Source: a virus (Duplodnaviria > Caudoviricetes). Taken from it: DNA of 64,000 nt. Numbering within the stretch: position 1 is the stretch's first letter; each line of letters begins with the position of its first letter. Shown here in pieces: positions 1,833 to 35,960 of this stretch. Position numbers and translations under genes: made by a program. A model generated the notes under the pieces. That model ran no database searches, was not told the origin of the DNA, and worked only from the letters and a program-made list of their open reading frames with translations. The DNA is taken from positions 1 through 64,000 of IMG/VR virus record IMGVR_UViG_3300017821_000056; one strand, written 5' to 3'.

Positions 1833-1908
1833 GATCGGCCCTCCGCTGCCGGGATTTTTGCCCTGCGCGAGGCTGTAATACGGGTACCGGGCCATTACGA
1901 TGCAGGAC

Positions 1909-2301
1909 GTGAGCAGCGAGGAGGAAGCGACGGCGCGGGTACGGGCCGTGATCGAGGATCACTCCCGGCTGGTGGCGTTCGTGGCCGCCCGGCTGGATGA
2001 GGATGAGGCGCTGATCGGACGCAACAGCGGCGGGCGCGGACTAGCCGACGGCTTCCCGGACTACCGGACTTACGTGGACGATGACACCGACGCCGCCGAT
2101 GAGTACATCGCGCACTTCGGGCCTGCCCGGATGCGTCGCCAAGCCGAAGCCGCCCGCGCCGTCCTGACCGCCTACGAGATGAGCGTCCGCATGCTCGGGG
2201 AAGGGCTGTCGCGGGACAAGCTGATGCTGGTCCGGGCTCACGCGGTCATCTGGGAGGACCACCCGGATTACGACCCGGCATGGCGGCCGGGAGAGGGCTA
2301 G
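1909..2301 (+). CDS. DUF6221-like protein
   Basis: LVAFVAARLDEDE...HPDYDPAWRP signature; GTG 7 nt after TACGAT (leaderless); alternative ATG at 1900. Confidence 0.75.
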   Translation: MSSEEEATARVRAVIEDHSRLVAFVAARLDEDEALIGRNSGGRGLADGFPDYRTYVDDDTDAADEYIAHFGPARMRRQAEAARAVLTAYEMSVRMLGEGLSRDKLMLVRAHAVIWEDHPDYDPAWRPGEG

Positions 2302-9820: not shown

Positions 9821-10225
9821 TCACGCCTCGCCGCGCTTCGCGGCAATGTGCTCATGCTTGGACTTGAGTGCTACCGCGCGGTCTGGATGGCAGTCGATGA
9901 CGAGACCTCCGCACGTCTCGCAGGTCACTTCCCAGACGTGGCGGACGGTCACCTCGTGCGGCGGCGGCGGAAGCGGCTTCAGCTCCGGGAGGTCTCCGGG
10001 CTGGATGAGCTGGGCCAGGTCCAGATTCACGGCAGCGGCCACAAGTGCAAGCCGGGAGATGCTCATATCCTGGCGGCCGGCCTCCAGGTTCGCGATCGAG
10101 GAGCGGGCCATCCCGACTCGCGCGGCGACATACTCCTGGCTCAGCCCCTCGGCCTCGCGGGCAGCTTTGATCCTCGCGCCGACCTTCCGCTGGAGCTTGG
10201 TCGCGGCCATGCTGTCCGCGGTCAT
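9821..10225 (-). CDS. XRE-family HTH regulator
   Basis: VGARIKAAREAEGLSQEYVAARVGMARSSIANLEAG; C-terminal CETC. Confidence 0.9.
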   Translation of the reverse strand: MTADSMAATKLQRKVGARIKAAREAEGLSQEYVAARVGMARSSIANLEAGRQDMSISRLALVAAAVNLDLAQLIQPGDLPELKPLPPPPHEVTVRHVWEVTCETCGGLVIDCHPDRAVALKSKHEHIAAKRGEA

Positions 10226-10473
10226 GCTGTCCGCCTTCCGTCCAGGTGCAGGATGTGCGCTAGCGCGTAGTGGCCGCGATACCCGCGCTCAGTCCAGAAC
10301 TTCCGGCCGCAGCCGCAGCACTTGCGCAGGCCGTAGAACGGCAGCGGGATAGCGGGCACCCACTCGCCCCGCTCGTTCTGAGTGGTGGTGTCGTCAGTCT
10401 CGGTCATGGTCTCCATCCTCTCCCGGTCAGGCTGCGGGGTTGGTGCCAGTGCCGGTGCCGATCTGGTACTCAC
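10222..10473 (-). CDS. C2H2-like zinc-finger protein
   Basis: CGCGRKFWTERGYRGHYALAH. Confidence 0.55.
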   Translation of the reverse strand: MSTRSAPALAPTPQPDRERMETMTETDDTTTQNERGEWVPAIPLPFYGLRKCCGCGRKFWTERGYRGHYALAHILHLDGRRTA

Positions 10474-11090
10474 GCGCGCCGAAGCTTCCTGGCTTGCTTG
10501 GCGTACTCGGCATCCGCCCGCGCCTTGATCGGGCCGAAATGGGCAGCCAACCGGTCATACTCGGTCTTCGCTGCGATGATCGCTTCCCCAAGCTTGATCA
10601 ACTCTTCTCCCGTGTGATCCTGCTTGCGGCGGTTACAGTCGTGGCAGATCACCATGACATTCCCCGGGATATAGCCGAGAGCCGCGTCGTAACAGTCAAT
10701 CGAGGGCGAGTTCTTGCTCTGCACGCCGTTCCCGCGCTCCATCGGCACGCCGCAGCAGGGGCACAAGCACGGTACGACGACATCCACTGTGGTAATGGTG
10801 CAGGGGATGCCCTTCAGCTTGGCCCGGTCTCTGGCGTGTTTCACTAGATCCAACTCGGGGCGCATGACCGATGCGGCTTTGGCTAGCGCAGTCTTCCGCG
10901 CCCGCCGTTCCGCGCTTAGGCTGGCGTAGTACTTGCGCCTGTGCGCCTGAACGCGATTGGGGTTAGCGGCCGTCCAGCCTGCTTGATAGAGCCGGTTCCG
11001 TTCCTGCCAGCACTCAGGGTTTCTCCGGCAGATGCCGACCTTGTTGTCAGACCGTATCGAGCCACCGCAGATCCTGCATGCTCGCGTCAT
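10470..11090 (-). CDS. His-Me finger (HNH/EndoVII-like) endonuclease
   Basis: ARDRAKLKGIPCTIT, CPCCG, SIDCYDAALGYIPGNVMVICHDCNRRK. Confidence 0.75.
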   Translation of the reverse strand: MTRACRICGGSIRSDNKVGICRRNPECWQERNRLYQAGWTAANPNRVQAHRRKYYASLSAERRARKTALAKAASVMRPELDLVKHARDRAKLKGIPCTITTVDVVVPCLCPCCGVPMERGNGVQSKNSPSIDCYDAALGYIPGNVMVICHDCNRRKQDHTGEELIKLGEAIIAAKTEYDRLAAHFGPIKARADAEYAKQARKLRRA

Positions 11091-11830
11091 CCCGCTTCCT
11101 CCGGTTCCCGGTTCCACCGCTCTACGGCCTCCGTGTCCACATGCTCATCGACCAGGGTCAGCGACCACGCCCCGGTGTTGACTTCCTCTGGTTCCTTGCC
11201 GAAGCCGACCCACGCCCCGGTGAACCGCCGCTCATCCTCGGTGCCGAGCAGCTGGATAGCCCCGGTGTAGACCGCGCCGCGGTAGTAGCCGTCCGCGCGG
11301 GTCTGCTCTGCCCATGTCCCGGTGGCGACCTTGCCGTTGACGCTGAGGTCCATCGACAACTGCGAGGCCGAGGCGGGCAGCGACCGGACCAGCAGCCGCG
11401 CGCCGCGCTGGAGGAGCATCACGTAGTGGGCGCTGGTGAACACCTGGTCCCGGCCGCTCGACCGATACTCGTACTCGGATCGCCAGATGCCGCTGAGGTC
11501 CCCGTAGCTCCCGGCGGGTTCGGGCAGCGGCATGTCAGAGTCGAGCCCGGATTCCGCGAGCGCGCGGGCCCGGTCCATGCCGTGGCGGAGGTCCGCGTCG
11601 AAGCCGAGGTTTTCCACCGGCTGACCGAGGACGGCTTCGAGGGCGAGAAGATAGCGGGCGTGCGGCCGGCGCGTCTCCCCGGACTCCCACCGCTGGACCA
11701 TGCGGACGCTGCACCCGGCGGTGTTGCCGAGGTTGCCGAACCTGAACCCGGCTTCGCGGATCAGGCTGGCGAGCTGGTCCTGGCTCAGGTGGGCCCGTTC
11801 CCGCGCCGCGCGCAGTGCGACGTTGGCCAT
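11087..11830 (-). CDS. XRE-HTH regulator with C-terminal beta-barrel domain
   Basis: LRAARERAHLSQDQLA...VQRWESG; DLSGIWRSEY...FTGAWVGF. Confidence 0.8.
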   Translation of the reverse strand: MANVALRAARERAHLSQDQLASLIREAGFRFGNLGNTAGCSVRMVQRWESGETRRPHARYLLALEAVLGQPVENLGFDADLRHGMDRARALAESGLDSDMPLPEPAGSYGDLSGIWRSEYEYRSSGRDQVFTSAHYVMLLQRGARLLVRSLPASASQLSMDLSVNGKVATGTWAEQTRADGYYRGAVYTGAIQLLGTEDERRFTGAWVGFGKEPEEVNTGAWSLTLVDEHVDTEAVERWNREPEEAG

Positions 11831-11902: not shown

Positions 11903-12061
11903 ATGTCCCCGCGAGAGTGCCAGCAGCTAGCCGAGATGATCCGGGACCTGACGGCCCGGCTGGATCACTTCGAGCAGCGCAAGGCGGCGCTCATTGCCCG
12001 CGGCCTTCCTGCTCCGCGATCCACGCCTCGGCCGCAGCCATCCGCTCATCCAGCAGCCTGA
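11903..12061 (+). CDS. small hypothetical protein
   Basis: TACGCT 6 nt upstream of ATG. Confidence 0.4.
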   Translation: MSPRECQQLAEMIRDLTARLDHFEQRKAALIARGLPAPRSTPRPQPSAHPAA

Positions 12062-12356
12062 TCTGGTCGGCCAGGTAGCGGTATTCCTGGGTCGGCTCAG
12101 GCTCGCCCGGCTTACGGGCGAACGTCCCCCTGCCCTGCTCGGTCACCAGCCGGCCCTCGTTGCGCAGCACGCGCAGCGCGGCGTTCATGGTCCCCAGCGC
12201 CACGTGATACTCGGCCATCAGATCGGAGACGGACGGCAGCCGCGAGTCCGGCGGGAACTCCCCTGACTCCATGCGGGCGCGCAGGTGACCGGCTATCTGC
12301 CGGTACTTCGGAGGTTCCTCGCGCGCCACAGGCACAGCGTAGAGGCTGGAAGTCAT
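11991..12356 (-). CDS. GntR-family regulator (TraR/KorSA-like position)
   Basis: KYRQIAGHLRARMESGEFPPDSRLPS...EQGRGTF; divergent from the transfer operon. Confidence 0.85.
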   Translation of the reverse strand: MTSSLYAVPVAREEPPKYRQIAGHLRARMESGEFPPDSRLPSVSDLMAEYHVALGTMNAALRVLRNEGRLVTEQGRGTFARKPGEPEPTQEYRYLADQIRLLDERMAAAEAWIAEQEGRGQ

Positions 12357-12454
12357 CTAGGTAACCCCTGGTCATCTATGCCTTGACTCTAGCACTTGAC
12401 TTGTGATTGAGTGAAACAGGCAAAGCGCTTAGACCGCGCAGAGGACGGAGACCT

Positions 12455-12658
12455 TTGGACGCCAACCCCGGCAAGGACCAGGACAGGCTGATCGAGCCCC
12501 GTGAGGCGGCCAGGCTGTTCGGCGTGTCGGCCGACACCCTGCGCCGCTGGCATAAGGCCGGCCTGATCACTGCCCGCAGGACGATGGGCAGGCAGCGCCG
12601 CTACTGGGAAAGCGAAGTCCGGGCCCGTGCCGCTGAGCTAGACGAGGCGGTGGCCTAG
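12455..12658 (+). CDS. BldC-like/excisionase MerR-type HTH protein
   Basis: LIEPREAARLFGVSADTLRRWHKAGLITARRTMGRQRRYWESEVRA. Confidence 0.8.
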   Translation: MDANPGKDQDRLIEPREAARLFGVSADTLRRWHKAGLITARRTMGRQRRYWESEVRARAAELDEAVA

Positions 12659-12755
12659 ATGCCCCGCACCCCCGTAAACGAAAGCCGTCCGGGCGCTTGG
12701 AACACCCGGACGACTGAAGGCTGCCCCACCCGTGGACTACAAGAAGGACAAACCA

Positions 12756-12965
12756 ATGACCGCCAGCGTAACAGACCACCCCGTCAACACGTCGCCCGCC
12801 GCGCCGGACCTCCTCCCCGAGCTGGCCGCGATCCTGGTCATGCTCGGCGCCTACCCGCAGGACGCGCAGTGGTGGGGGCCGAGGCTCGGCTACCCCGTCT
12901 CCGCCCTGGAAGCCGCCCTGATCGCCGCAGGCAGGCTGGCGATGGCGCAGGCGAACCTGCCGTGA
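12756..12965 (+). CDS. hypothetical protein
   Basis: RBS AAGGA; coupled to next gene. Confidence 0.55.
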   Translation: MTASVTDHPVNTSPAAPDLLPELAAILVMLGAYPQDAQWWGPRLGYPVSALEAALIAAGRLAMAQANLP

Positions 12966-13255
12966 CCAGCATCCGCGCCCTAGCCGACGCCCTGGACGCG
13001 GCTGAGGCCGAATCAGCGGCGATGAGGATGGAGGCCGACGCCCCCGCCCTCACGGCCCTGTACGACGCGCTCCGGTTCGCCAAGGACGCGCTCGGCGCGG
13101 CCCTGAGCCTGGACCGGGGCTGCCCTTCCTCGCTGCTGCTGGACGCCTCCGTAGCGGCCGGTGAGGCTTTCCCCCTCGGCACCCCGCAGTCGGAGTCCCT
13201 TGGCTGCATCCTCAGCGTCATCGCCGACGTGACCGAGGCGAGGCGAGCCGCATGA
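12962..13255 (+). CDS. hypothetical protein
   Basis: GTGA coupling. Confidence 0.55.
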   Translation: MTSIRALADALDAAEAESAAMRMEADAPALTALYDALRFAKDALGAALSLDRGCPSSLLLDASVAAGEAFPLGTPQSESLGCILSVIADVTEARRAA

Positions 13256-13482
13256 CCCGGCATCCCCTGATCACGGTGACCGCCGTCGCCGTCGCGAGCA
13301 CCGCTGCCGTCATCCTGGCATTCGTCCTGGTGATCGTGCCGCTGACACACGCCGCAGCCCGCGTCCCGGGCCAGGTCGCCCGCGGCTACTCCGCCTACTT
13401 CAACGGGGTCGGCCAGCAGTTCTACCAGGCCTGCGAGCAGACCCGCGGCCCGGACTGCGGGCAGTACCGGGGCACGCCATGA
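13252..13482 (+). CDS. small membrane/secreted protein
   Basis: N-terminal hydrophobic helix; ATGA coupling. Confidence 0.6.
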   Translation: MTRHPLITVTAVAVASTAAVILAFVLVIVPLTHAAARVPGQVARGYSAYFNGVGQQFYQACEQTRGPDCGQYRGTP

Positions 13483-13769
13483 TCACCTGCTCCCCGCCCG
13501 CCTGCGCCGTCATGGGCCAGCAGTTCCGGCACGCCGCCGCATCCGGGTGGACACCGGGCCACATCGCCGCCGTGGTGCTCGCCGCGTTCCTCGCCGCGGT
13601 CGCCGCGGGCACCGTCCTGGTCCTGATCCGGGACGCCCGGCGGCAGGCCCGTGCAGCGGCGGCGCAGGCGGTAAGCATCTACATGGACAGGAGGGCAGCC
13701 TTATGCAAGGCACCTGGAAGACGACCGGCGGCGGAGCTGACTTTTCCGGCCTGTTTCAGCTTGCGGTGA
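13479..13769 (+). CDS. small membrane protein
   Basis: One TM helix; ATGA coupling. Confidence 0.55.
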   Translation: MITCSPPACAVMGQQFRHAAASGWTPGHIAAVVLAAFLAAVAAGTVLVLIRDARRQARAAAAQAVSIYMDRRAALCKAPGRRPAAELTFPACFSLR

Positions 13770-14149
13770 TCGTCGGCCTGGCGGCCGGCATCGCGATCAT
13801 CATCGCGGAGTTCGCGTGGCTGGTCATCACCGTGGGCGTGGTCGCCGTGGCCGTCCGGCTGTACCTCCTGTACCGCAGGACCGTCATCCTGGCCGCGATC
13901 GCCGCCAAGGGCGTTGCGATGCGCGCCGAGCAGCAGGCCCAGGCCGCTGCCGCCCTGGCCGGCCGCCGCGCGCACGAGATCGAGGTCGCCCGCGCGGGGG
14001 CCACGATCATCCAGAACATCATCGACCCGGCATCTATCACCGCCGCTATCGCTGCCGCTGTCGCAGGGGCACAGCAGCAGCCCTGGGCACCGCAGCCTGT
14101 CCCCCTCCGCATGATCCCCGGCACTGCTGAGGAGGTCCGACGTGGCTGA
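13703..14149 (+). CDS. two-TM membrane protein
   Basis: RBS GGAGG; two hydrophobic helices. Confidence 0.65.
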   Translation: MQGTWKTTGGGADFSGLFQLAVIVGLAAGIAIIIAEFAWLVITVGVVAVAVRLYLLYRRTVILAAIAAKGVAMRAEQQAQAAAALAGRRAHEIEVARAGATIIQNIIDPASITAAIAAAVAGAQQQPWAPQPVPLRMIPGTAEEVRRG

Positions 14150-14450
14150 TGCCCAGCAGAAATGGCCCGGGTACCGGCAGGACCGCGAGGACGAGCGCAG
14201 GCAGCAGGAGCGGCAGCGCGAGGAGCGGATAAAGGCCGACAACCTGTCCGCCCGCATCCGCGCGACCTTCCAGGGTGACCGGATCGACCCGGCGACCGGG
14301 CGCACCTTCGGGAACGCGCGGGACAGGGGCATGTACGACGACGACCGCCGCCTCCGGGACTTCCGCGACATGAACGACCGGAACCGGCAGGACCGGGAGC
14401 GGTACCGGTGGGCGCAGGCCCGCATGCAGGGCCGGGCAGGGAGAAACTGA
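14142..14450 (+). CDS. charged hypothetical protein
   Basis: RBS GAGGAGG; coupled on both sides. Confidence 0.6.
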   Translation: MADAQQKWPGYRQDREDERRQQERQREERIKADNLSARIRATFQGDRIDPATGRTFGNARDRGMYDDDRRLRDFRDMNDRNRQDRERYRWAQARMQGRAGRN

Positions 14451-16237
14451 TGAGCGCGACCACGGCCAAGGCTAAGGACAACCCCCGCAAGAGCGCATGG
14501 CGAGGTATCGGGACTGCTGCCGCTGTCGCCGTGCTGCTGCTGGCGGTAGCCCTGCACCAGGTCCTAATCATCATCCTCGCCGCTATCGCCGCCCTGGCCG
14601 TCGGCGGGCTGGTCCTGCGGGCACGGTGGGCCCGGTACCGTTCCGGCGGCCGGCTCGCCGCATGGAAGCGCCGCCGCTACCAGGGCACCGCGACAGGGCG
14701 GGAGATCCGGGCGAAGCTGTCTCCCCGCGCGGCCCGCAAGCGCACCGCGGTCACATGCCCAGGCCTGCACCCGTCCGAGGCCCACGTCGTCATCGGCCGC
14801 GCCAGGGGTGCCCTCGGCCATCGCCGAGGCCCTGTGATCGCGGACACCTGGGCTGGCTCCCGCCTCGTCTACGCCCCGCCGCAGACTTTGAAGACGGCGC
14901 TAACGTCCTGCTGGGCCGCTGACGCGCCCGGCGCGGCCCTGCTGTTCTCCAGCCGCTGCGACCAGTGGGATCACACCTACCTTGCCCGCGCGGCGCGCGG
15001 CCGGGTCCGGGTCCTCAACGCCGACGGGGAAGGCGGCATCCCGACCGGCTTCGCCTGGTCCCCGGTGGACGGCTGCCAGGACCGGGCCACGGCGATGCGC
15101 AGGGCGGGGGACCTGATGGACGCCGCCCCGCACGACCCGTCCGGCCATGATGCCCACTGGGACGGCCTGTCCAAGCGGATGCTCCAGTTCTTCCTGAAGG
15201 CCGCCGCGCTCCTGCCCGCCGGGAACATCCTCACCGTCCAGAAGTGGGCGTCGAACCCGCTGACGGCCGGGAAAGCCGCCGAAGTCCTCCAGCGGCATGA
15301 CCCGGACTGGGGTGAGGCGCTGGTCGCCATGGTCTCCCAGTCCCTGAACGACGGGCGGTACTGGTCGGCGATCTCCGGCGGGGTCAGCCAGGCTCTCGCC
15401 TGGCTCGACGACGACCTCATGGCCGCTGCTGCCTGCCCCCCGCCCGGACAGGGCATTAACCTGCGGGAGTTCATCGAGGCCGGCACCGGCACCATCTACA
15501 TCATCGGCGCCGACCGGGAGCACGGCTCCCTGGCCCCCTACTTCGCCGCATTCGGCGCCGAGGCGTTCCACGTGGCCCGCTCCGTGGCCGAAGCCCAGCC
15601 GGGCCGCCGGCTGGCCCGCCCGTTCGTCATCGTCGCCGACGAGGCCGCGACGATCGTCCCGCTGCCCTGGCACAAGATCACCGCCGTGTCCTCCGGGTAC
15701 AACATCGGGATCACCGCCTGCGTCCAGGCTGACTCGCAGATCACCGCCCGCTGGGGCGAGCACGACGCGAACACGATCCGGACGAACTTCACCGTCAAGA
15801 TCATCGGCCCCGGTTTCACGAATCACGCCGAGCTGGAGGCCCTGTCGGCGATCTGCGGAGAAGTCGACACGTGGCATGACGGCCCGGCGGACCTGCGGAA
15901 GGAGCGGCTGTTCCCGCCGGAGCGCATCCGGCTGCTCCCCGACTGGCATGCCCTGGTCCTGCACCGCAACGCCCGCCCGGTCACGGTGAAGGTCAGGCCC
16001 GTGTGGAAGCGCCGCGGCTACCTGCGCGCGGAGCCGGGAGACTATGCCGCCCGCCTGCCCGTCCCGCGGCTGGCGCTCGAGGCCCCCCGCCGTGAGGCCA
16101 TCCCCATGCCGGGCGGTCCCGCGTTCATCCCCGGCCACCTGCTGCAGCGCCCGGCTGTCCCGGGCCGTGAGCCTGTCCCCGCCCTGACCGAAGCCCCCGA
16201 GGAGGCTCTGTGGCCCGTTCCCTCCGCGACCGCCTGA
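14450..16237 (+). CDS. VirD4/TraD/TraG-like type IV coupling protein
   Basis: N-terminal TMs; atypical Walker A APPQTLKT; WSPVDGC; Walker B IVADEAATIVPLP; QADSQITARWG. Confidence 0.85.
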   Translation: MSATTAKAKDNPRKSAWRGIGTAAAVAVLLLAVALHQVLIIILAAIAALAVGGLVLRARWARYRSGGRLAAWKRRRYQGTATGREIRAKLSPRAARKRTAVTCPGLHPSEAHVVIGRARGALGHRRGPVIADTWAGSRLVYAPPQTLKTALTSCWAADAPGAALLFSSRCDQWDHTYLARAARGRVRVLNADGEGGIPTGFAWSPVDGCQDRATAMRRAGDLMDAAPHDPSGHDAHWDGLSKRMLQFFLKAAALLPAGNILTVQKWASNPLTAGKAAEVLQRHDPDWGEALVAMVSQSLNDGRYWSAISGGVSQALAWLDDDLMAAAACPPPGQGINLREFIEAGTGTIYIIGADREHGSLAPYFAAFGAEAFHVARSVAEAQPGRRLARPFVIVADEAATIVPLPWHKITAVSSGYNIGITACVQADSQITARWGEHDANTIRTNFTVKIIGPGFTNHAELEALSAICGEVDTWHDGPADLRKERLFPPERIRLLPDWHALVLHRNARPVTVKVRPVWKRRGYLRAEPGDYAARLPVPRLALEAPRREAIPMPGGPAFIPGHLLQRPAVPGREPVPALTEAPEEALWPVPSATA

Positions 16238-16797
16238 CCCGAGGGCACACCTGCTCCTGCAGCAGCCGTGACTGCAAAGGCTCCTACCGGACGCTCCGCG
16301 AGCTGCAGGCCCACCACATAAGGCAGCTCCCCAGGTGGACCGGCGACAAGGCCCGCAAGGCGGCCCGGCGGATGGGCAAGGACGTGGACCGGATGCGCCG
16401 GCACGCCCGCAGCTGGCTTGAGGCCGCCGGGCTGATCGACCACCGCGGCAACCGCACCGCGAAAGGCCGGGCCCGCCCCGAGGTCCGCGGCAATGCCCCC
16501 GTCCGGCAGCTGCGGGAGGCGCACCGCCACGACCGGGACGCTGACCGCACCGACCGCCGCGCGAGCAGGCATGAGCGCCGCGCGACCCGCGCCGACACCC
16601 GCGCCGACCGGGCCGCCCAGCGCGCCGACACCGCCAAGGCCCGCGGCCGGGACAGCGCAGCCGCCCGGCAGCAGGAACAGGCCACCCGGCACCGGGGCAG
16701 GGCCGCCGCCAGCCGGGAACGGGTCGCGGACACCCGGATGGCCCACCACCAGCGCTGGCCCGAGAGGACCCCCGAGAGGACAGGGAGAACCCGGTGA
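16210..16797 (+). CDS. Arg-rich protein with N-terminal zinc-finger-like motif
   Basis: CSSRDC...LQAHH; RBS GAGGAGG. Confidence 0.55.
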   Translation: MARSLRDRLTRGHTCSCSSRDCKGSYRTLRELQAHHIRQLPRWTGDKARKAARRMGKDVDRMRRHARSWLEAAGLIDHRGNRTAKGRARPEVRGNAPVRQLREAHRHDRDADRTDRRASRHERRATRADTRADRAAQRADTAKARGRDSAAARQQEQATRHRGRAAASRERVADTRMAHHQRWPERTPERTGRTR

Positions 16798-16887
16798 CCG
16801 CCGACCCGTGCCCCCACGTCCTGCCCTGCGGGGCGTGTACCGACTGCTGCGAGCGGGACCACGACCACGGGAAGGAGGCGAGCGCCG

Positions 16888-17460
16888 ATGACGGCAGCCG
16901 GGACCGGGTGCCCTGAGACCTGGGAACGGCACCCTATCTACCCGCACGAGGGCTCCAGCCTCGGCCGGGCACGCACCCTCGACGGGAAGATCCTCCGCCA
17001 GCGGCCGGGCAACCGGCCCCGCGACGTCCCTCCGGAGCAGCGGTACCGGCTGATGGACGTGTGGATACCCGGCGAGGACGGGGAGAAGGGCAGGAGAGTC
17101 ACCGTCTCCGTCCACGTGTTCATCACCGAATGCCACTGGGGGCTGAAGAAGTACCGCCGCCAGGTCGCGCGTCACCGCGTCAGCGCAGGCGGCGGCGCGG
17201 CCGATAACCGGTGGGAGAACCTGCTCGGATGGGGTTTCCCCGAGGACAACGAGGCCGACAAGCCGCCTGCGGTCCGGGCCGCTGCCGCCCGGGCGGCCAG
17301 GGCCGCGCAGCTTGCCGCCCTGCCCCGGCGCAAGAGGCGCCGGCGGTTGCGGAGGGTGACCTTGAAGGTGACCTTCCGCCTGCCGTGGCCCCAGCGGAAG
17401 CGTCGCGTAACCGCAGGCGGCAAGCCTGTTTCGAAACCTGTAACGAAGGGGCGCCTGTGA
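16888..17460 (+). CDS. hypothetical protein
   Basis: RBS AGGAGG. Confidence 0.5.
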   Translation: MTAAGTGCPETWERHPIYPHEGSSLGRARTLDGKILRQRPGNRPRDVPPEQRYRLMDVWIPGEDGEKGRRVTVSVHVFITECHWGLKKYRRQVARHRVSAGGGAADNRWENLLGWGFPEDNEADKPPAVRAAAARAARAAQLAALPRRKRRRRLRRVTLKVTFRLPWPQRKRRVTAGGKPVSKPVTKGRL

Positions 17461-17578
17461 CAGGGCTGGTTATAGCGCGAAAGTGCGGCTGCGGCTCGGA
17501 CCGTACCCCGGGCGGCTTTCGCACTGGTGTTCGGACGCTGGCGGCTACGCTGCGTGACATGGGAGCTGGTGACGGGCG

Positions 17579-20539
17579 GTGACGACGGCGGGCGGCATCC
17601 TGCCGGTGACCGGCGGGCTGATCCTGGCCGTGCTGGCGGTCCACGAGGCGGTGTTCGCGGTGCGGCACCTGACCTGCAAGCCCGACCACTGCTCGTGCCC
17701 GCTGACGCACAAGCTCCTCGCGGGGACGCCGCTGCACGGCCACACCGTCACCGACGCCACGTACTGGCGCAAGGCGAACAACGACCTGACGCGGGCGAAG
17801 ACCACGGGCCCGTGGCTGAAGCTGCCGGGGTGGAAGCGGCGGCTCATCCGGACGGGGCCGCTCGTGGCGGCGGCGGGCGTGCTGGTCAACTGGTGGCTGG
17901 CCGCGGCCGTGCTGGCGGTCCTGGCGCCGTTCCTGGCTGCCGCGTTCTCGGGCCGGGTGAGGCGCCTGCTGCGCCGTGCTGCCAGCCGGGTGCCGGGCCG
18001 CCTGTGGGGCCGGCTGCGGCACCGCGACCGGGTGCAGACGATGGGGATGCTGCTCGCGTCGATCACCGGCACCGCCGCGTCCGCCGCCGAGTCCGGGATC
18101 ACGTGGAACCCCGGCTACGCCACGGCGGAGCCGGGCGACGAGGTGGCCCGGTGGGTGCTGCCGCGCGGGTTCAAGGCCCTCGGCAAGGAGAAGGCCCTGG
18201 CGGAGGAAGTGTGGCAGTCCCGCGTCGGGTTCCAGCTCACCTTCTCCTGGGAGACCCAGGACACCGACGAGCCGGTCCTGGTGATGAGGCGGGCCCGCGA
18301 GATGCCGTCCGTCGTGTACTTGCACGAGGTGCTGGACCGCGTTGAGGCGCTGCCGGATCACAAGACCGCGATCGGGCTGGATGACCAGGGGAATCTCGTC
18401 TGCTGGGACTGGCTCGCCGAGAATCCGCACGGCATGGTCGTGGCCGGGTCGCGGCACGGGAAAGCACTGGCGCTGGACACGCCTATACCGACTCCGGCGG
18501 GCTGGACGGCGATGGGTGAGCTAACTGATGGCGACCTGGTGTTCGATGAGACGGGCCGCCCATGCCGGGTGATCCGGGCATGGGCGGTGCGATACGACCG
18601 CCCGTGCTATGAGGTCGAGTTCAGCGACGGGTCCGTAGTCACGGCCGACGCTGAGCATCTGTGGCAGGTGGAGGACGCTGCGGCCCGCAAGTGGTTCGGC
18701 CGGGTAAAGAATCCCCCGGATAGGTGCCCGGTCAGGGTCGTGACTACCGAGGTCATGGCCCAGTCGCTGCGCGCACGCCGTAGCGACAAGTGCGATGTGG
18801 CCAATTACAGCGTGAGGGTCGCGCGTCCGCTGCAGTGCCCTGATGCGGACTTGCCGGTTCCGCCGTACACCCTTGGCGCATGGCTGGGGGACGGCACCTC
18901 GCAGAACGGCAGCATCACTACCGTCGACCAGGAAGTTCTTTCCGCGATTGAAGCTGAGGGCTGCGTCGTCACCCCGGGAAAGACCTATCCGGACAGGACG
19001 CCCGTGTACCGGGTGGCCGGGTTGAGTCGCATGCTCGCTGAGGCGGGAGTACGGAACAGTGCCTGGCGCCGACGGGGGCTGCGTCCCGCTGATAAGCACA
19101 TCCCCGTGGCCTACCTGCGGGCATCGGAGGCCCAGCGCCGGGCGCTGCTAGCGGGCCTGCTCGACACGGACGGCACATGCACCAAGAAGAAAGGGACGGT
19201 TGAGTTCTACAGCACGCATGAGCGGCTGGCCCGGGATGTGCACCACCTGATTTGCACTCTTGGCTACAAGGCAACCTTGCGCAGCAATCCTGCCCGGTTG
19301 CGCGGAAAGGACTGCGGCACGGCCTGGATCGTCGTGTTTACCCCGCCGGACAAGGTGTTCTTGCTGCCGAGGAAGGCGGCCCGGCAGGTGACCGCGGTCC
19401 GGGAGACGGCTTCACGTCTGTACATCACGGCGATTCGGCCGGTCGCCTCGGTGCCCGTCCGGTGCATCACCGTAGACAGTCCGTCCGCGCTTTACCTAGC
19501 TGGGTCATCTTGTATCCCGACACACAACACGGAGCTGAACCGGTCGCTGACGGCGCAGGTGGTACGGAAGGGCGGCCGGGTCGGCGGCGTCGACTGCAAG
19601 CGGATCTCGTTTCAGGGCCTGGAAGGCGTCCCGGGGTTCGATCTCCGCAACAACCCCCGGAATATCCGGGAGATGTGGGAACTGGTCGGCGAGTTCTACG
19701 GCGAGATGGAGCGCCGCTCCGAGGAGCGGGCGAAGAACCCGACGGCCGAGTTCCCCCGCTGGCTGCTGATCTTCGAGGAGGTCAACCAGTTCTCGGCGAT
19801 GACTGATGACTGGTGGGAGGAGATGGAGGCGGAGAATCCCGCGGATGAGGGCACGCTGTTCTGGAAGCCGAAGCGCGGCAAGAAAACCCCCCGGGTGTGG
19901 CGGTGGGTCAAGTCGCTGTGCTGGGAGGGCGCCGAGTTCGGCATGCACGTGATCGTGGACGGGCAGGACGGGGAGTTCCAGGCTCTCAAGGGCGTCCGGA
20001 ACGTGCTGGGGATGCGGCTGCTGGGCGGGTTCCAGCCGCAGCAGTGGAAGAACTGCGTCGGCACGACCCCGGTCCCGGAGGCCCCGTCGCAGAAGGGCCG
20101 GTTCTGCCTCGTGTCCGGCGGCCAGACCTGGGTTCAGGCGCTGTGCGGGCATAAGGACAAGAACGAGTCCGCGGCGATCTGGCGTGACTTCGCGCGGGCC
20201 GGGCGCCGCATGGACGGGACGCTGCCGCCTGTCACCGAAGCCTCCGTGACATACCACGTGGACTCAGATGGGCAGGTCAGCGCGGTGAACGGTGCGACAC
20301 CGGGACATGTCACAGCGTCCGGGCCGATGGGCCTGTCGGACATCGTGGCGGCCGGTCTCGTGCAGGGGACCGTGAAGGCGCTCCGCATGGACCGGCACCG
20401 GTCCGACCTCGGAGAACTGCCCGACGGGCTGAAGTTCCCCGAGCCCGTCGGGCAGGAAGGGCAGAAGGAGTTGTTCGACGTGGCCGAGGTCCGGGCGTTC
20501 GACGCAGCCCGGCGTGGCGGCGTCTCTGACGTGCACTGA
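17579..20539 (+). CDS. FtsK/SpoIIIE-like (TraB-type) membrane DNA translocase, intein-containing
   Basis: TMs; Walker A AGSRHGK|T split by intein; VDCK; Walker B LLIFEE; C-terminal HTH-like domain. Confidence 0.8.
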   Translation: MTTAGGILPVTGGLILAVLAVHEAVFAVRHLTCKPDHCSCPLTHKLLAGTPLHGHTVTDATYWRKANNDLTRAKTTGPWLKLPGWKRRLIRTGPLVAAAGVLVNWWLAAAVLAVLAPFLAAAFSGRVRRLLRRAASRVPGRLWGRLRHRDRVQTMGMLLASITGTAASAAESGITWNPGYATAEPGDEVARWVLPRGFKALGKEKALAEEVWQSRVGFQLTFSWETQDTDEPVLVMRRAREMPSVVYLHEVLDRVEALPDHKTAIGLDDQGNLVCWDWLAENPHGMVVAGSRHGKALALDTPIPTPAGWTAMGELTDGDLVFDETGRPCRVIRAWAVRYDRPCYEVEFSDGSVVTADAEHLWQVEDAAARKWFGRVKNPPDRCPVRVVTTEVMAQSLRARRSDKCDVANYSVRVARPLQCPDADLPVPPYTLGAWLGDGTSQNGSITTVDQEVLSAIEAEGCVVTPGKTYPDRTPVYRVAGLSRMLAEAGVRNSAWRRRGLRPADKHIPVAYLRASEAQRRALLAGLLDTDGTCTKKKGTVEFYSTHERLARDVHHLICTLGYKATLRSNPARLRGKDCGTAWIVVFTPPDKVFLLPRKAARQVTAVRETASRLYITAIRPVASVPVRCITVDSPSALYLAGSSCIPTHNTELNRSLTAQVVRKGGRVGGVDCKRISFQGLEGVPGFDLRNNPRNIREMWELVGEFYGEMERRSEERAKNPTAEFPRWLLIFEEVNQFSAMTDDWWEEMEAENPADEGTLFWKPKRGKKTPRVWRWVKSLCWEGAEFGMHVIVDGQDGEFQALKGVRNVLGMRLLGGFQPQQWKNCVGTTPVPEAPSQKGRFCLVSGGQTWVQALCGHKDKNESAAIWRDFARAGRRMDGTLPPVTEASVTYHVDSDGQVSAVNGATPGHVTASGPMGLSDIVAAGLVQGTVKALRMDRHRSDLGELPDGLKFPEPVGQEGQKELFDVAEVRAFDAARRGGVSDVH
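18464..19528 (+). mobile_element. intein (355 aa) with LAGLIDADG endonuclease, class-3 type
   Basis: Starts ALALDTPIPT; ADAEHLW; LGAWLGDG and LAGLLDTDG; VRCITVD; ends PTHN|T. Confidence 0.9.
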
Positions 20540-20588
20540 AGGAAGATACCCGCAGGAACCGTCCTGCACGAACAGAAAGGAAACGATC

Positions 20589-20918
20589 ATGGCGCCCCTG
20601 CCGCCTCTCACCCCCGAGCAGCGCCGCGAAGCGCTGGACAAGGCCGCGGAAGCCCGCAAGGTCCGTGCCGAGGTCAAGTCCCGCCTCAAGCGGCGCGTCA
20701 CGACCCTGCACGCCGTCCTCGAGGAGGCCGACGCCGAACCCGGGGACTATCAGATGATCGGCAAGATGAAGGTCTCGAACCTGCTGGAGGCCATGCCGGG
20801 GATCGGCAAGGTGCGGGCGAAGCTGATCATGGAGCGACTCCAGATCGCGGACAACAGGCGCATCCGCAGCCTGGGCTCGAACCAGCGCGCGAATCTGGAA
20901 CGCGAGTTCGCCGCCTAG
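20589..20918 (+). CDS. mihF: actinobacterial integration host factor
   Basis: LPPLTPEQRREALDKAAEARKVRAEVK...IGKMKVSNLLEAMPGIGKVRAKLIMERLQIADNRRIRSLGSNQR. Confidence 0.93.
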   Translation: MAPLPPLTPEQRREALDKAAEARKVRAEVKSRLKRRVTTLHAVLEEADAEPGDYQMIGKMKVSNLLEAMPGIGKVRAKLIMERLQIADNRRIRSLGSNQRANLEREFAA

Positions 20919-21014
20919 CACATGCGTCCCGTCAGCCGCAGTCATCAGCCGGTCTGCGGCTGGCGGGCAACATCTCCGCAACGACAAGCAAAATGGTCAG
21001 CAGCGAGGAGCAGC

Positions 21015-22010
21015 ATGAGCCAGATGGGCAAGCACTCCACTCCCCTTGACGGCGTGGTCGCCAACGGCCACGCGCCGACGCTCGCGCCGTTCACCGTCGC
21101 GCCGATTCAGGTACGCCAGGGCGGCCCCGTGCTGCCGTGGCCGCAGCCTGACCGCTGGCAGCGCGTCACGTCAGCCGCCCGCCGCGTGGCGGCGCACCGC
21201 GGCTGGCTGGCCGCCATCCCCGTCGTCCTGGTCAACGCCGTGGCGTTCTACGGCCAGCTGGCGTTCCTGCGCGTGCACCTCCCGGCACCGTCCGCCGTCC
21301 AGGCGCTCGTCGCTGTCGCGCTGGAGTCGATCGCCGTCTACTTGGCGTGGCAGGCGCACCTGGCCCAGCTGGCGGACGACAGCGCGCTGCGGCTGCGCCT
21401 CGCCGCGTACGGCATGGCCCTTCTCATCGCCGCCATGAACTACTCCCATTACGCGGCGGCGCACTGGCGGCCGACGTTCGCCGCGCTGGCGTTCGGCCTG
21501 TGCTCGGCTATCTCCCCGTGGCTGTGGTCGGTGCATTCCCGCCGCGAGTCCAGGGACATCCTGAAGGCGAAGGGCCTGATCGAGCCGCACGCGGTCAGGC
21601 TCGGCGTGACCCGGTGGGTGTGGCATCCGCTGCGGTCGCCTGTCGTCATGTGGCACGCCACGTGGGCCGGGGAGAACGACCCCGCCAAGGCGATTGCGCT
21701 GGCGGAAGCGAAGGCGGCGGATGGCGGCAGCGGGCCCGCCACGGATGACACGCTACCGGACCCGCCAGACGCGCCCGAAGACGACAGCGAGAGCGACAAG
21801 GAAGACGACAAGATCCCGCCACCGCCGTCGCCACCGGACCCGCCGAGAATGACGCCCGCCATCGCCAAGGCCGTCGCCGCTATCAAGCGCAATCCGGGGC
21901 TGACGGACAAGGATCTGGCGAAGAAGGCCCGCGTGTCAGAGCGCACCATCCAGCGCGCCCGCCCGCTCGTCCCCGCCACCCGCGCCCGTACTGTGATCGG
22001 AGCACCGTGA
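21015..22010 (+). CDS. SpdB/DUF2637-like multi-TM spread protein with C-terminal HTH
   Basis: Four hydrophobic helices; Pro/Asp linker; LTDKDLAKKARVSERTIQRAR. Confidence 0.65.
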   Translation: MSQMGKHSTPLDGVVANGHAPTLAPFTVAPIQVRQGGPVLPWPQPDRWQRVTSAARRVAAHRGWLAAIPVVLVNAVAFYGQLAFLRVHLPAPSAVQALVAVALESIAVYLAWQAHLAQLADDSALRLRLAAYGMALLIAAMNYSHYAAAHWRPTFAALAFGLCSAISPWLWSVHSRRESRDILKAKGLIEPHAVRLGVTRWVWHPLRSPVVMWHATWAGENDPAKAIALAEAKAADGGSGPATDDTLPDPPDAPEDDSESDKEDDKIPPPPSPPDPPRMTPAIAKAVAAIKRNPGLTDKDLAKKARVSERTIQRARPLVPATRARTVIGAP

Positions 22011-32850: not shown

Positions 32851-33038
32851 CAGGGTACGAGCAGGGACTTCACCCCAAACCAAGCAGAGCCAAGAGCAGG
32901 AATACGACCAGCCAAGAGCAGGAAAGCGACCAGACCAACAGCGCAAGCCAACAGCAGGAATGTTGTGCGCACCCGAACCCTGTAGGTACAGGTCGCGCGG
33001 TCCCTGGTGGGCCTGTAGTCGCGCCGGGAGGTGCAGCG

Positions 33039-33455
33039 TTGGCGGTTGCTAAGCGCCAGGTGATGTTCCGGGCGGCGTGTGACCTGCATGACCGTGCGGC
33101 GGAGCTGGCGAGCAGGCAGGGTGAGGCGCTGAACGAGGTGCTTACCCGGGCGCTGGAGGTGTACGTGGCGGGGGGGCTGCGGAGGGGCGCACCTGATATC
33201 ACCCCTGATATCACCCTGGAGCCTGCTAGCACCCCTGATATCACCCCTGGCCCTGATATCACCCCCGTAGAGGTGCTAGCACCCCCGGACGTGATATCAC
33301 CCCCGGACGCGGCGGCTAGGCCGCGGAGGCAGCGACGGGAGAAGGCCGTCACGGTTCCGGCCGCGTCTCCGTGGGCCGCAGTGCGCCGTGAGGACTGCCC
33401 GCACCGCGGGCTGCGCGGCGCCTACTGCAAACTCTGCCGCGCCACGGTCTGCTGA
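33039..33455 (+). CDS. RHH-like protein with internal PDITP repeats
   Basis: RBS GGAGGT; QVMFR...LHDRAAELASRQGEALNEVLTRALE; C-terminal CPH...CKLC. Confidence 0.6.
   Translation: MAVAKRQVMFRAACDLHDRAAELASRQGEALNEVLTRALEVYVAGGLRRGAPDITPDITLEPASTPDITPGPDITPVEVLAPPDVISPPDAAARPRRQRREKAVTVPAASPWAAVRREDCPHRGLRGAYCKLCRATVC
33192..33302. repeat. array of palindromic octamers
   Basis: TGATATCA x5 and TGCTAGCA x2, each followed by CCC. Confidence 0.85.
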
Positions 33456-35150: not shown

Positions 35151-35960
35151 GTGAAGGACCTGATCGCGTTCCTGGGTGCCCGGCTGGATGAGACTGCGGC
35201 GCGGGCGTGGGCTGTCCATGACGTGGAGCGGTGCGATGCCCTCTTGTACGAGGAGGATATGGGGGCTGCTGCCGCGCGCACCCCGGAGTGCGATTGCGGC
35301 TGCTCGGCCCGCGTGCTCCGTGGGGTGGGGGCTATGCGGGAGCTGATCACTTACGCTCTGGAGAACGCCGCGATGATCGACGGCGAGTGGGGCGACTGCC
35401 ATGAGGCTGCGGAGATCGCTAGCGGGCTGTGCGCGGATCATGGCGTGAAGGCTGCGGGCAGGGGCCTGGGGCTGCTCGCCGCGATCTGGCGGGATCATCC
35501 GGATTTCCGCCAGGAGTGGGCTCCCTCGGGCGGGGCTGTGTTACGGTCCCGCTTGCCACCCCGCTACCTGTCCGCTACACTGTCCGCTATGAACTCTGTG
35601 AAGCTGCCCCCCACCTCCGTAAATCTGGCCCCGGAGGAGAAAGCCAGGGTGAAGGCCCTGGGCGTGCCGCTGCGTACCGTGATCCTGACGGGGCTGGATG
35701 TCCTGGAAAGGGAACGGGCCGGTTCCGGTGAGGCTGCCGCGTCCGTTTACGCGGATCAGGCGGCGATGGTGCGGGCGATGGTCGCGGCGGAAGTGGACCG
35801 CAGGCTCCGGGAATGTGAGAGCGGCGCCGGGGGGGAGAAGGGGCTGCGGACTGCGCGGAAGCGGGCCGCCGCCCCGGTGAGGCACGCGGTGCCCGCGGCG
35901 GCATCCTCCGGTGATCCTGTTCCCGTCAGGTTCCAGCCGGGTACGGAGCCGGCGAGATGA
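35151..35960 (+). CDS. DUF6221-like protein reading through into an RHH-like gene
   Basis: LIAFLGARLDE...HPDFRQEWAP with no stop before ATG 35589. Confidence 0.6.
   Translation: MKDLIAFLGARLDETAARAWAVHDVERCDALLYEEDMGAAAARTPECDCGCSARVLRGVGAMRELITYALENAAMIDGEWGDCHEAAEIASGLCADHGVKAAGRGLGLLAAIWRDHPDFRQEWAPSGGAVLRSRLPPRYLSATLSAMNSVKLPPTSVNLAPEEKARVKALGVPLRTVILTGLDVLERERAGSGEAAASVYADQAAMVRAMVAAEVDRRLRECESGAGGEKGLRTARKRAAAPVRHAVPAAASSGDPVPVRFQPGTEPAR
35553..35589 (+). promoter_or_regulatory. promoter P4 (leaderless) with three (T/C)CCGCTA repeats
   Basis: TTGCCA-17-TACACT-7-ATG. Confidence 0.7.
35589..35960 (+). CDS. RHH-like DNA-binding protein
   Basis: PTSVNLAPEEKARVKALGVPLRTVILTGLDVLE; own promoter. 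Confidence 0.55.
   Translation: MNSVKLPPTSVNLAPEEKARVKALGVPLRTVILTGLDVLERERAGSGEAAASVYADQAAMVRAMVAAEVDRRLRECESGAGGEKGLRTARKRAAAPVRHAVPAAASSGDPVPVRFQPGTEPAR

Follow-up and report, generated by a model that had tools for sequence, protein, structure and literature searches.

The evidence supports the presence, in a complete phage genome, of two ATPases of conjugation type, one with the fold of a coupling protein (T4CP) and the other with that of FtsK, in a single operon-like block under a divergent GntR regulator. We think that this block may be a conserved, repressor-controlled DNA-translocation module, whose pump would drive the capsid-free spread of a temperate phage genome and in which the T4CP would be an accessory. 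This reading is argued by analogy with known transfer systems, and we give it a probability of about 0.45.

The phage and its transfer-type block

The window analysed here is a stretch of 64,000 nucleotides, positions 1 to 64,000 of the virus record IMGVR_UViG_3300017821_000056, which is 128,210 bp long and is listed as a complete virus genome by IMG/VR and CheckV. On the point of circularity, an exact 123-bp terminal repeat closes the contig (a DTR virus record). The juxtaposition of a transfer-type block with a terminase and other phage genes, which was central to the original prediction, is real, and the following genes lie outside the block:

39024-40823: terminase, a verified phage gene
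43297-47862: portal-MuF-NUDIX fusion gene, a verified phage gene
101086-102387 of the genome: tyrosine integrase, the sole integrase of the genome, about 80 kb from the block

The terminase is only distantly related to that of any isolate, the putative tail genes gave almost no matches when scanned against PHROG, and nucleotide searches with the block found no match among isolated phages and plasmids. A scan of genome contigs gave one match, a contig of 7 kb from the bin of a Streptosporangiaceae MAG; as this is a single short MAG contig, the host stays uncertain. The lineage would be one of large temperate phages whose hosts are high-GC, probably filamentous, Actinomycetota.

The record being a metagenomic assembly, one may ask whether a conjugative element was fused to a phage by misassembly. 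The exact terminal repeat and the completeness of the record in both IMG/VR and CheckV argue against this, as does the same juxtaposition with phage genes in four independent assemblies (the related contigs L001, L012, L008 and L009), and we regard the chance of such an artefact as next to negligible.

All the genes named in the original prediction are found where it placed them, between positions 11991 and 22010:

11991-12356, minus strand: short GntR-family regulator of 121 aa, with a winged HTH only and without the UTRA effector domain (Pfam GntR 1.7e-14)
12357-12406, no strand: divergent control region, the 50 bp between the GntR and MerR-like genes, with two TTGAC words read from the sequence
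12407-12658, plus strand: MerR/HTH_17 (excisionase/Xis-type) small DNA-binding protein (Pfam MerR 2.4e-13, HTH_17 7e-8)
12683-12715: hairpin after the MerR-like gene, with a 15-bp stem
12732-12965, plus strand: 77-aa ORF (GC3 0.91) with no family match and no hydrophobic segment
13252-14149, plus strand: two or three small single-pass membrane proteins (ORFs 13252-13482, 13479-13769 and 13547-14149; exact starts uncertain)
14142-14450, plus strand: 102-aa highly charged protein, rich in Arg, Asp and Glu, overlapping the start of the T4CP gene (GC3 0.92; no family match)
14408-16237, plus strand: VirD4/TrwB-type coupling protein (T4CP), likely start ATG at 14450 (595 aa in the database version)
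16210-16916, plus strand: strongly basic protein of 195 aa whose N-terminus has a Cys/His cluster, then a 40-aa Cys-rich ORF (GC3 0.92; no family match)
16888-17460, plus strand: 190-aa protein with weak matches to HNH-endonuclease PHROGs at 1.5e-3 and nothing else
17579-18463, plus strand: N-extein of the FtsK/TcpA-like ATPase, which contains membrane helices and a conserved cluster (H/C-x-C-x-C) and breaks off within the P-loop, at G-S-R-H-G-K
18464-19528, plus strand: predicted class-3 intein of 355 aa with a LAGLIDADG homing endonuclease (LAGLIDADG_3 3.7e-10), between the Walker A Lys and Thr
19529-20539, plus strand: C-extein of the FtsK/TcpA-like ATPase, which comprises Walker B (L-L-I-F-E-E), the core of the motor and, at the C-terminus, a small domain
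20514-20918, plus strand: homologue of the actinobacterial integration host factor (mIHF/sIHF), likely start ATG at 20589
20922-22010, plus strand: DUF2637-like membrane protein with a C-terminal HTH, called 'SpdB-like' in the original prediction (DUF2637 sub-threshold)

The divergent GntR gene, clear from its Pfam match, has homologues at the same position in contigs L002, L008 and L012. The MerR/HTH_17 gene heads the plus-strand array and is 95% identical over 64 aa to the first array gene of L001. A scan for sigma-70 consensus promoters found none, and terminator matches were at chance level. The small membrane proteins that had been predicted are indeed there, each with one strong hydrophobic 19-mer (Kyte-Doolittle 2.6-2.8; GC3 0.78-0.91), and searches of family profiles gave no match for them. 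Two of the other small genes have counterparts in relatives: the 195-aa basic protein is 50% identical to the product of the gene that comes next after the T4CP gene of L012, the identity in L017 being 59% over 37 aa, and a homologue 37% identical to the 190-aa protein lies 5' of the FtsK-like gene in L001.

The gene at 20514 is an mIHF homologue, as had been proposed, scoring above the cut-off of NF041260 (5.8e-36, 123 bits against 60) and matching H2TH_5 (5.6e-26, 90.8 bits; cut-off 27); an mIHF gene also follows the ATPase region in L001, L012 and L014. The SpdB-like gene is a more qualified case. The gene is present and its product resembles DUF2637, at 18-18.5 bits against a cut-off of 22.8; it is 69% identical to the neighbouring protein in L001 and 29% identical (2e-9) to a Pfam-positive DUF2637 protein of the Streptomyces plasmid NZ_CP109008, a transitive link. 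It has, however, no similarity to SpdB of pIJ101, which is itself not a DUF2637 protein. The nearest Atlas clusters carry DUF2637 or SpdB_N with an HTH, an observation that we treat as a lead only.

Two ATPases and an intein

The coupling protein was correctly recognised as VirD4/TraD-like. It matches PF12696 (TraG-D_C) at 45.6 bits (E 8.4e-12; cut-off 22), and falls under the cut-offs of NF045973 (VirD4-like, 2e-8) and of PF02534 (16.4 bits against 20.1); homologues at 40-55% identity do carry PF02534, and PF10412 is also seen in homologues. In Foldseek, its AF2 model (pLDDT 82) is closest to Cag-beta/VirD4 (8dol, 1.4e-16) and TrwB (1e9s, 7e-15), with TM scores by target of 0.6-0.7. A hydrophobic segment (residues 52-70) lies within a long helix (32-80), an N-terminal membrane anchor, so that the protein is, as modelled, a membrane-anchored member of the TrwB/VirD4 fold. 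Its Walker B (V-I-V-A-D-E) is intact. Its Walker A, A-P-P-Q-T-L-K-T, is deviant: the Lys and Thr are retained, but the Gly before the Lys has become Leu. According to the alignment, this replacement characterises the whole T4CP subclade, and sister clades have G-P-P-G-x-G-K-T. A tblastn search with the T4CP against 50,697 phage records gave no match. The T4CP and VirB4-like proteins of the plasmids NZ_CP109008 and pFRL3 likewise have no tblastn counterpart in the phage.

The second ATPase had been proposed to be an FtsK/TraB-like translocase, on the basis of an ORF of 986 aa (17579-20539). This ORF corresponds to an FtsK-like protein of about 631 aa interrupted by the 355-aa intein, which the original prediction had not recognised. 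The N-extein was characterised from its translation, from mapping of the junction, from the columns invariant in 27 homologues and from its hydrophobic segments; the C-extein has 65 homologues at 43-85% identity and matches the TcpA profile 6o1w at E 0.005. For P0003, a homologue without the intein that is 81% identical overall and 85% identical in the C-extein, the structural model has TcpA (2e-14), the FtsK motor 2ius (1e-13) and EccC (6e-11) as matches, which points to an FtsK-type motor fold in the phage protein, as read from the model of this homologue and not of the window protein itself. Pfam gives no such indication: FtsK_SpoIIIE (PF01580) has no match in the genome or in the exteins searched separately, the separate exteins match no Pfam family at all, and relatives give sub-threshold matches to PF01580 (13-19 bits against 24). 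The FtsK gamma DNA-recognition domain occurs in three longer relatives, and the window protein is without it. The FtsK part of the prediction stands, through the model of the homologue, but the kinship with TraB is weakened: apart from the P-loop there is no detectable homology to Tra of pIJ101 (hhalign probability 4%), nor is there any to pZL12.71c (0.1%). The protein is 25-29% identical to uncharacterised proteins of Streptomyces plasmids annotated as FtsK, DUF87 or pRL2-11. The full ORF has 754 phage matches, every one of them to the intein, and an intein-free homologue searched by tblastn against the same 50,697 phage records has none.

The intein lies exactly where intein-free homologues (about 630 aa) join, at GK|T. 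Class 3 is defined by the lack of an N-terminal nucleophile, Trp at B:12, Cys at F:4, Thr at G:5, a terminal His-Asn and Ser or Thr at +1. Here we find Ala1 in place of a nucleophile, H-L-W, R-C-I and T-H-N|T, i.e. the WCT signature (Tori 2010). In addition, R-C-I is accompanied by Asp at +4 and Tyr at +10, T-H-N falls at +19 to +21 from the Cys, with the spacing of the Bethlehem DnaB intein, and Thr is at +1. Judged by its sequence, then, this is a class-3 intein. The DnaB-like helicase of Brevibacterium phage Rousseau has an intein at this site too, to which ours is 44% identical, and the GC3 of our intein is 0.78 against 0.90-0.97 in the exteins. The active P-loop of the FtsK-like protein, G-S-R-H-G-K-T, can be formed only once the intein has spliced out, as it is predicted to do. 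Known class-3 P-loop inteins of actinobacteriophages, such as those of Bethlehem DnaB and of TerL1-a at the 'classic' P-loop site (PMC2807308, PMC5050341), share Ala1, the WCT triplet, Thr+1 and the LAGLIDADG endonuclease, and they too are inserted between Lys and Thr of Walker A. The difference lies in the host protein, here an FtsK-like ATPase of a transfer-type module; the mycobacteriophage survey does not list such a host and mentions 'FtsK' 0 times.

Limits of the block and its conservation

It had been claimed that neither relaxase nor VirB4 accompanies the two ATPases, and this holds for the complete 128-kb genome: profiles for seven relaxase families and VirB4 (PF03432, PF08751, PF03389, PF01076, PF02486, PF13814, PF07514, PF12846, PF03135) gave no match at E<=1. 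The claim that the block runs without an evident boundary into phage genes is equally well founded. Its flanks show no convincing att-like repeats (17 bp being the length of the best exact match), it has neither an integrase nor a replication gene as a neighbour, and the flanking genes are syntenic in relatives. An AICE is defined by its own integrase, a replication gene and Tra in an att-bounded unit (PMC3429521), and we rejected this identity for the block, which has no adjoining integrase or replication gene and no att repeats. In translocases of the FtsK/SpoIIIE-TraB type, a winged-helix domain at the C-terminus recognises an 8-bp site that occurs in repeats (clt/KOPS). We found no array of clt-like 8-mers in or adjoining the block, from within-block repeats, tandem repeats and genome-wide 8-mer clusters with Markov controls. 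The sole 8-mer cluster of the genome, TGATATCA x5 at 33194-33299, lies 11 kb from the block and looks more like iterons or an operator than like clt.

The order GntR, (WhiB), T4CP, two small genes, FtsK-like gene, mIHF, DUF2637 is repeated in a 134-kb contig from another sample, and parts of it recur in L001, L002, L008 and L009; WhiB genes occur within the array in relatives, and L001 has a portal 10 kb downstream. Contigs keep this order even though the identity between their proteins is only 35-80%, which speaks for selection. The presence of this order in independent metagenomic phage-like contigs, from samples other than ours, indicates that we are dealing with a module of the phage, and neither with a separate AICE carrying its own att sites nor with a misassembly, the two outcomes that would have overturned the original prediction.

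On a related view, the phage has captured a piece of an AICE, ICE or plasmid, and the block is cargo or is decaying, without function for the phage. Homologues on Streptomyces plasmids, the mosaic gene content of relatives (with a T4CP that is fragmented in L017) and a GC content slightly raised at 13-18 kb could be cited in its favour. Nevertheless, the ORFs of the block are all intact and have a high GC3, the att repeats, integrase and replication gene of such an element are missing, and the family, with its conserved order, is nearly confined to phage-like metagenomic contigs. We consider this view very unlikely.

Conservation is less strict for the pairing of the two ATPases. The FtsK-like gene occurs without a T4CP in L001, L008 and L018 and with a fragmented one in L017, and L014 has a T4CP without a nearby FtsK-like gene. 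That either ATPase can be found without the other weakens the idea of an obligate hybrid machine.

Known transfer systems and the possible role of the block

Streptomyces plasmids have adjacent genes for homologues of the FtsK-like and DUF2637-like proteins, 25-30% identical, with a GntR/UTRA regulator gene in divergent orientation, which is the korA / tra-spd layout of pIJ101; these plasmids also carry genes for a T4CP, a VirB4-like ATPase and a 'conjugal transfer protein'. With the TraB-Spd loci of Streptomyces plasmids and AICEs (korA / tra-spdA-spdB of pIJ101, TraB of pSVH1) the phage block shares the divergent GntR, a membrane-anchored FtsK-like ATPase followed by membrane-protein genes, and the absence of a relaxase. 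It differs from them in having no clt array, in a GntR without UTRA and in proteins with no detectable homology to Tra of pIJ101 (beyond the P-loop) or to SpdB, as well as in its additional T4CP, mIHF and intein and in its residence in a phage.

Two phages offer parallels in setting. The Streptomyces plasmid-phage pZL12 is transferred by conjugation through one main tra gene together with two genes next to it (PMC3583192). Besides its genes for phage particles, pZL12 (phage ZL12, GQ919031) has a GntR-divergent layout like that of our phage, there with a GntR/UTRA regulator on one side and, on the other, small genes followed by those for a membrane protein, for a protein of 766 aa and for one that is FtsK-like; it differs in being a plasmid prophage with ParAB, where ours has a tyrosine integrase. 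The proteins pZL12.71c and pZL12.72c (Tra and its 766-aa neighbour) were considered as kin of our two ATPase families and rejected, having no detectable homology. The DNA translocation operon of Bacillus phage 0305phi8-36, which encodes a VirD4-like ATPase and membrane anchors, was proposed to serve intercellular DNA movement and is dispensable in the laboratory (PMC3357382). A conjugation-like operon in a large phage genome, the VirD4-like ATPase and the membrane anchors are common to both; however, the Bacillus operon includes a relaxase of MobC type, and its AAA_10 ATPase has no membrane domain, and our block has no relaxase, a membrane-anchored T4CP and a second, FtsK-like motor. By analogy with pZL12 and 0305phi8-36, capsid-independent spread of the phage genome is plausible.

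We imagine the following course of events. Upon derepression, the spliced FtsK-like protein would form a ring in the membrane and would pump the double-stranded DNA of the phage through cross-walls at septa or through contacts between hyphae, as in the TraB/Spd route of Streptomyces plasmids. The DUF2637-like protein and the small membrane proteins would make the passage, mIHF might bend or compact the DNA, and the T4CP homologue could be an accessory second motor or a docking ATPase and not an obligatory partner. In this way the temperate phage genome would spread without a capsid.

The module could instead work inside the infected or lysogenic cell, where the pump and mIHF would clear, segregate or condense phage DNA at septa, during sporulation septation or the handling of replicated concatemers, with the membrane proteins merely as anchors and no transfer between cells. 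FtsK and SpoIIIE do have such roles, the FtsK motor is among the best structural matches, FtsK gamma is present in three relatives, mIHF belongs to the nucleoid proteins, relatives have WhiB genes in their arrays, and the search for a clt array was negative. What makes us think this explanation unlikely is that the nearest cellular and plasmid homologues are found in tra/spd-type loci of plasmids, beside DUF2637 and under GntR, and not in chromosome-segregation loci; moreover, it leaves the T4CP without a role.

A T4CP ordinarily requires a relaxase and a T4SS, and the genome has neither. The original prediction made it part of a hybrid two-ATPase machine. Both ATPases do belong to one block, but each occurs without the other in relatives, the Walker A of the T4CP is deviant, and there is no clt array. 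A strict version of this idea, in which the T4CP and the FtsK-like pump jointly form a relaxase-free, T4SS-free two-motor exporter that would send the double-stranded phage genome through cross-walls or contacts between hyphae and so provide a tailed phage with a second route of infection, independent of the capsid, with the P-loop intein as a post-translational gate, appears to us decidedly doubtful. Another way of giving the T4CP a partner is to suppose that it, perhaps with the whole block, engages conjugative elements resident in the host, either docking the phage genome on a T4SS-type ICE or plasmid so that it is mobilised, or blocking rival conjugation or superinfection. T4SS-type ICEs of Actinobacteria combine Int, a TrwC relaxase, VirD4 and VirB4 (PMC3429521); the phage shares the T4CP family with them and is without the relaxase (seven families) and VirB4. 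A true TrwB/VirD4-fold protein in a genome lacking these partners would fit such a role, and so would its 32%-identical cellular cousin, which lies on a Pseudonocardia chromosome with a TrwC relaxase beside an integrase, behind a similar HTH_17/WhiB leader, as well as the T4CP and VirB4-like ATPase of the Streptomyces plasmids that carry FtsK-like and DUF2637 relatives. Yet we identified no oriT or relaxase on which a helper system could act, and the deviant Walker A and the loss or fragmentation of the T4CP in several relatives speak against this role too, so that we find it quite improbable.

If capsid-free spread by an FtsK-like pump is the correct reading, temperate phages of filamentous actinomycetes would be able to spread without a virion, a receptor or lysis, the way in which gene flow in soil actinomycetes and the host range of phages are modelled would change, and the line between phage and conjugative element would be blurred beyond the case of pZL12. 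The retention of a T4CP in a phage lineage without relaxase or T4SS raises the question of what such a protein does alone or beside an FtsK-like pump. Finally, with the FtsK-like ATPase, P-loop class-3 inteins gain a new host protein, and the intein adds a testable layer of regulation to the module.

A complete temperate phage

The record whose first half is the window (128,210 bp, 68.7% GC) repeats its first 123 bases exactly at its end, is listed in IMG/VR among viruses that have direct terminal repeats, and has a CheckV completeness of 100%. The main genes that identify its nature, and one mobile-element gene, are the following.

39024-40823: large terminase, T4-type (Terminase_6N/6C), with a C-terminal double zinc-ribbon extension
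43297-47862: portal-MuF-NUDIX fusion, a single 1521-aa ORF (Phage_portal, Mu F-like and NUDIX domains)
genome 101086-102387: tyrosine integrase
genome 107906-109144, minus strand, outside the window: TnpB/IS605 OrfB-type gene with a Cas12f-like TNB domain

Major-head and tail-completion genes gave only weak matches in the genome. Because of the terminal repeat, the completeness, the phage genes, the integrase and a terminase that shares no more than 36% identity with those of isolated phages, we conclude that this is a complete temperate phage of an uncultured Caudoviricetes lineage, and reject a chromosomal island.

Several other features deserve mention. The fusion of NUDIX to a portal/MuF protein is unusual. 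Three short tandem arrays of 10-bp units adjoin at 42011-42132 (GCGACTAACC x3, CCAGTTGCGT x3.5, AGTCTCCCGG x2), in a gap upstream of the small genes ahead of the portal gene. A divergent area, intergenic or 5', at 32888-33309 holds further repeats, which may be iterons, an operator or a centromere-like site: a 22-bp unit (x2.5, 32888-32942) and a unit of about 14 bp, CCTGATATCACCCC, in five exact and two variant copies (33194-33309), whose palindromic core TGATATCA is absent elsewhere in the 128-kb genome. Sugar-modification genes (a nucleotide-sugar epimerase, a FabG-like reductase and several glycosyltransferases) are scattered among the late genes (window 56736-61225, genome 71221-72435 and 87072-88505), and a 42-bp tandem repeat (2.4 copies, 94% matches, 60718-60818) lies within a glycosyltransferase-like gene region. 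There are several free-standing HNH endonuclease genes, e.g. 63151-64236 and 65236-66018, and two DUF6221 paralogues (window 1900-2301 and 35151-35960); DUF6221 also flanks the module in the related contigs L001 and L002.

A conserved module within the phage

The original prediction was of a conjugation-type operon with two different DNA-transfer ATPases inside a tailed-phage genome. Gene calling by GC3 gives the following order for the block at 11991-22010.

minus strand: GntR regulator, 121 aa (Pfam, 1.7e-14), followed by a divergent region of 50 bp
MerR/HTH_17 protein, 83 aa
ORF of 77 aa
two or three single-pass membrane proteins
charged protein, 102 aa
14408-16237: coupling-protein homologue of VirD4/TrwB type (T4CP)
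basic Cys/His protein of 195 aa, Cys-rich ORF of 40 aa, then a 190-aa protein without assigned function
17579-20539: FtsK-like gene, a 986-aa ORF interrupted by an intein (18464-19528)
mIHF
membrane protein, 362 aa, with a C-terminal HTH, last in the block

Most adjacent genes overlap or abut, which fits a single transcription unit; consensus promoter and terminator scans of the block gave no informative signal.

Could the block be a separate element? No integrase or replication gene adjoins it, and no convincing direct repeats flank it. Its arrangement recurs in independent contigs, which rules out both misassembly and a recent AICE insertion. Contig L012 (134 kb, from another sample) carries GntR, WhiB, T4CP and two small genes, of which one is 50% identical to 16210-16797; its FtsK-like protein is divergent and full-length (hhalign 98%), and it also has homing-endonuclease genes, mIHF and DUF2637. 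L001 (61 kb) has a MerR 95% identical, the FtsK-like gene, mIHF and a membrane-HTH protein at 69%, with a portal gene 10 kb downstream. Parts of the arrangement are found in three more contigs (L002, L008, L009), and at least six further contigs, matched by their lengths between the two homologue lists, appear to carry both ATPases. Searches for seven relaxase families and for VirB4-type ATPases found none anywhere in the complete genome, so the absence of both, first noted from the sequence, now holds genome-wide. The genes originally seen are confirmed, and their interpretation is supported in part.

Two predicted ATPases and inteins in the family

The T4CP has a TraG-D_C match above threshold and more than 100 metagenomic homologues, many carrying PF02534 and PF10412. 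Its AF2 model (pLDDT 82) best matches Cag-beta, the VirD4 of H. pylori, and TrwB (1e-16 to 1e-14). Walker B is intact; the alignment shows a Walker A of A-P-P-Q-T-L-K-T for the window's protein and close relatives and of G-P-P-G-x-G-K-T for sister clades.

The FtsK-like ORF has a single Pfam match, to a LAGLIDADG domain, and its exteins match no Pfam family. Its 65 homologues, mostly of about 630 aa, join exactly at G-K|T, so that splicing is predicted to restore a normal Walker A; Walker B reads L-L-I-F-E-E. The label "FtsK/TraB-like" holds for fold and architecture, since a profile of 27 intein-free homologues matches TcpA of pCW3, an FtsK-like coupling protein (E 0.005), the model of homologue P0003 (AF2, pLDDT 77) matches TcpA, the FtsK motor and EccC (2e-14 to 6e-11), and the C-terminus of three longer relatives is an FtsK gamma domain. 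Membership in the characterised TraB family was not borne out, homology to pIJ101 Tra and to pZL12 proteins being undetectable.

The precursor reads G-S-R-H-G-K, then A-L-A-L-D-T-P and, 355 residues on, I-P-T-H-N, then T-E-L-N. The intein begins with Ala1 in place of a nucleophile, has a Trp two residues past the block-B His, a block F of R-C-I with Asp at +4 and an aromatic residue at +10, T-H-N 19-21 residues past the block-F Cys, Thr at +1, and both LAGLIDADG motifs. This is the class-3 signature, at the positions set out for the Bethlehem DnaB intein (PMC2807308; PMC5050341). The intein shares 44% identity with one that occupies the corresponding G-K|T position in a DnaB-like helicase of Brevibacterium phage Rousseau. 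GC3 is 0.78 in the intein versus 0.90-0.97 in the exteins. Judged from their sequences, the ATPases of the module are intein hot spots. Two FtsK-like relatives (P0005, P0010) have a different, Cys-initiated intein, whose site precedes the one in the P-loop by 12 residues, and at least two T4CP relatives (P0165, and L014 at 9923-11494) contain LAGLIDADG inteins, one resembling that of the window.

One machine or two, and for what purpose

A hybrid two-ATPase machine had been proposed. Both ATPases do lie in one block; the evidence from relatives leans against an obligate pair. T4CP is absent within 10 kb of the FtsK-like gene in L001, L008 and L018, and persists only as fragments beside an intact FtsK-like gene in L017, while L014 has T4CP and mIHF with no FtsK-like gene nearby. 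A T4CP 32% identical follows a similar HTH_17/WhiB leader in an integrase-flanked element of the Pseudonocardia sp. CA-142604 chromosome (CP192045.1, 475244-497061), where two genes without assigned function and a 1424-aa TrwC relaxase complete the set; no VirB4 was seen there within 22 kb. (This element adjoins a Gabija-like pair, an OLD-family ATPase/TOPRIM gene and a UvrD-helicase gene.) Since either ATPase can occur with the other missing nearby, and this cousin accompanies TrwC, the T4CP looks like an accessory that the lineage took over from elements of the relaxase type and retained. A rival explanation is that the module interplays with resident conjugative elements.

FtsK-like homologues 25-29% identical occur on 58 actinomycete plasmids, mostly of Streptomyces. 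On NZ_CP109008, a 34-kb linear plasmid, and on pFRL3, the gene lies immediately downstream of a DUF2637 gene; on the former, whose DUF2637 protein is 29% identical to the 362-aa protein, the pair stands opposite GntR/UTRA regulators, as in the korA / tra-spd layout of pIJ101. Elsewhere, both plasmids also encode a T4CP, a VirB4-like ATPase and "conjugal transfer protein" products, so the phage is not the only replicon to combine an FtsK-like motor with a T4CP. Of the phage precedents, the Streptomyces plasmid-phage pZL12 transfers by conjugation, for which it uses a major tra gene and the two genes beside it (PMC3583192). Its GntR-divergent array closes with genes for a membrane protein, a 766-aa protein and an FtsK-like protein, without detectable homology to those of the window. 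In Bacillus phage 0305phi8-36, a "DNA translocation operon" that the phage can dispense with includes a relaxase and a VirD4-like ATPase (PMC3357382).

Intracellular segregation and decaying cargo are two further rivals. The main weaknesses of the translocation reading are the deviant P-loop of the T4CP, the lack of a clt-like site in the block and the uncertain host, the only genome match being a short contig from the bin of a Streptosporangiaceae MAG.

Two points are new: a conserved module of the phage pairs a T4CP with an FtsK-like motor but has no relaxase, and the pump carries a class-3 intein in its P-loop. The analysis establishes what the parts are and how they fold, that the phage lineage conserves them, and that relaxase and T4SS are absent; substrate, direction and benefit are inferred. 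On the most likely reading, at slightly less than even odds (about 0.45), the module would be a TraB/Spd-like system translocating double-stranded DNA, by which the phage would spread through a mycelium or between contacting hyphae.
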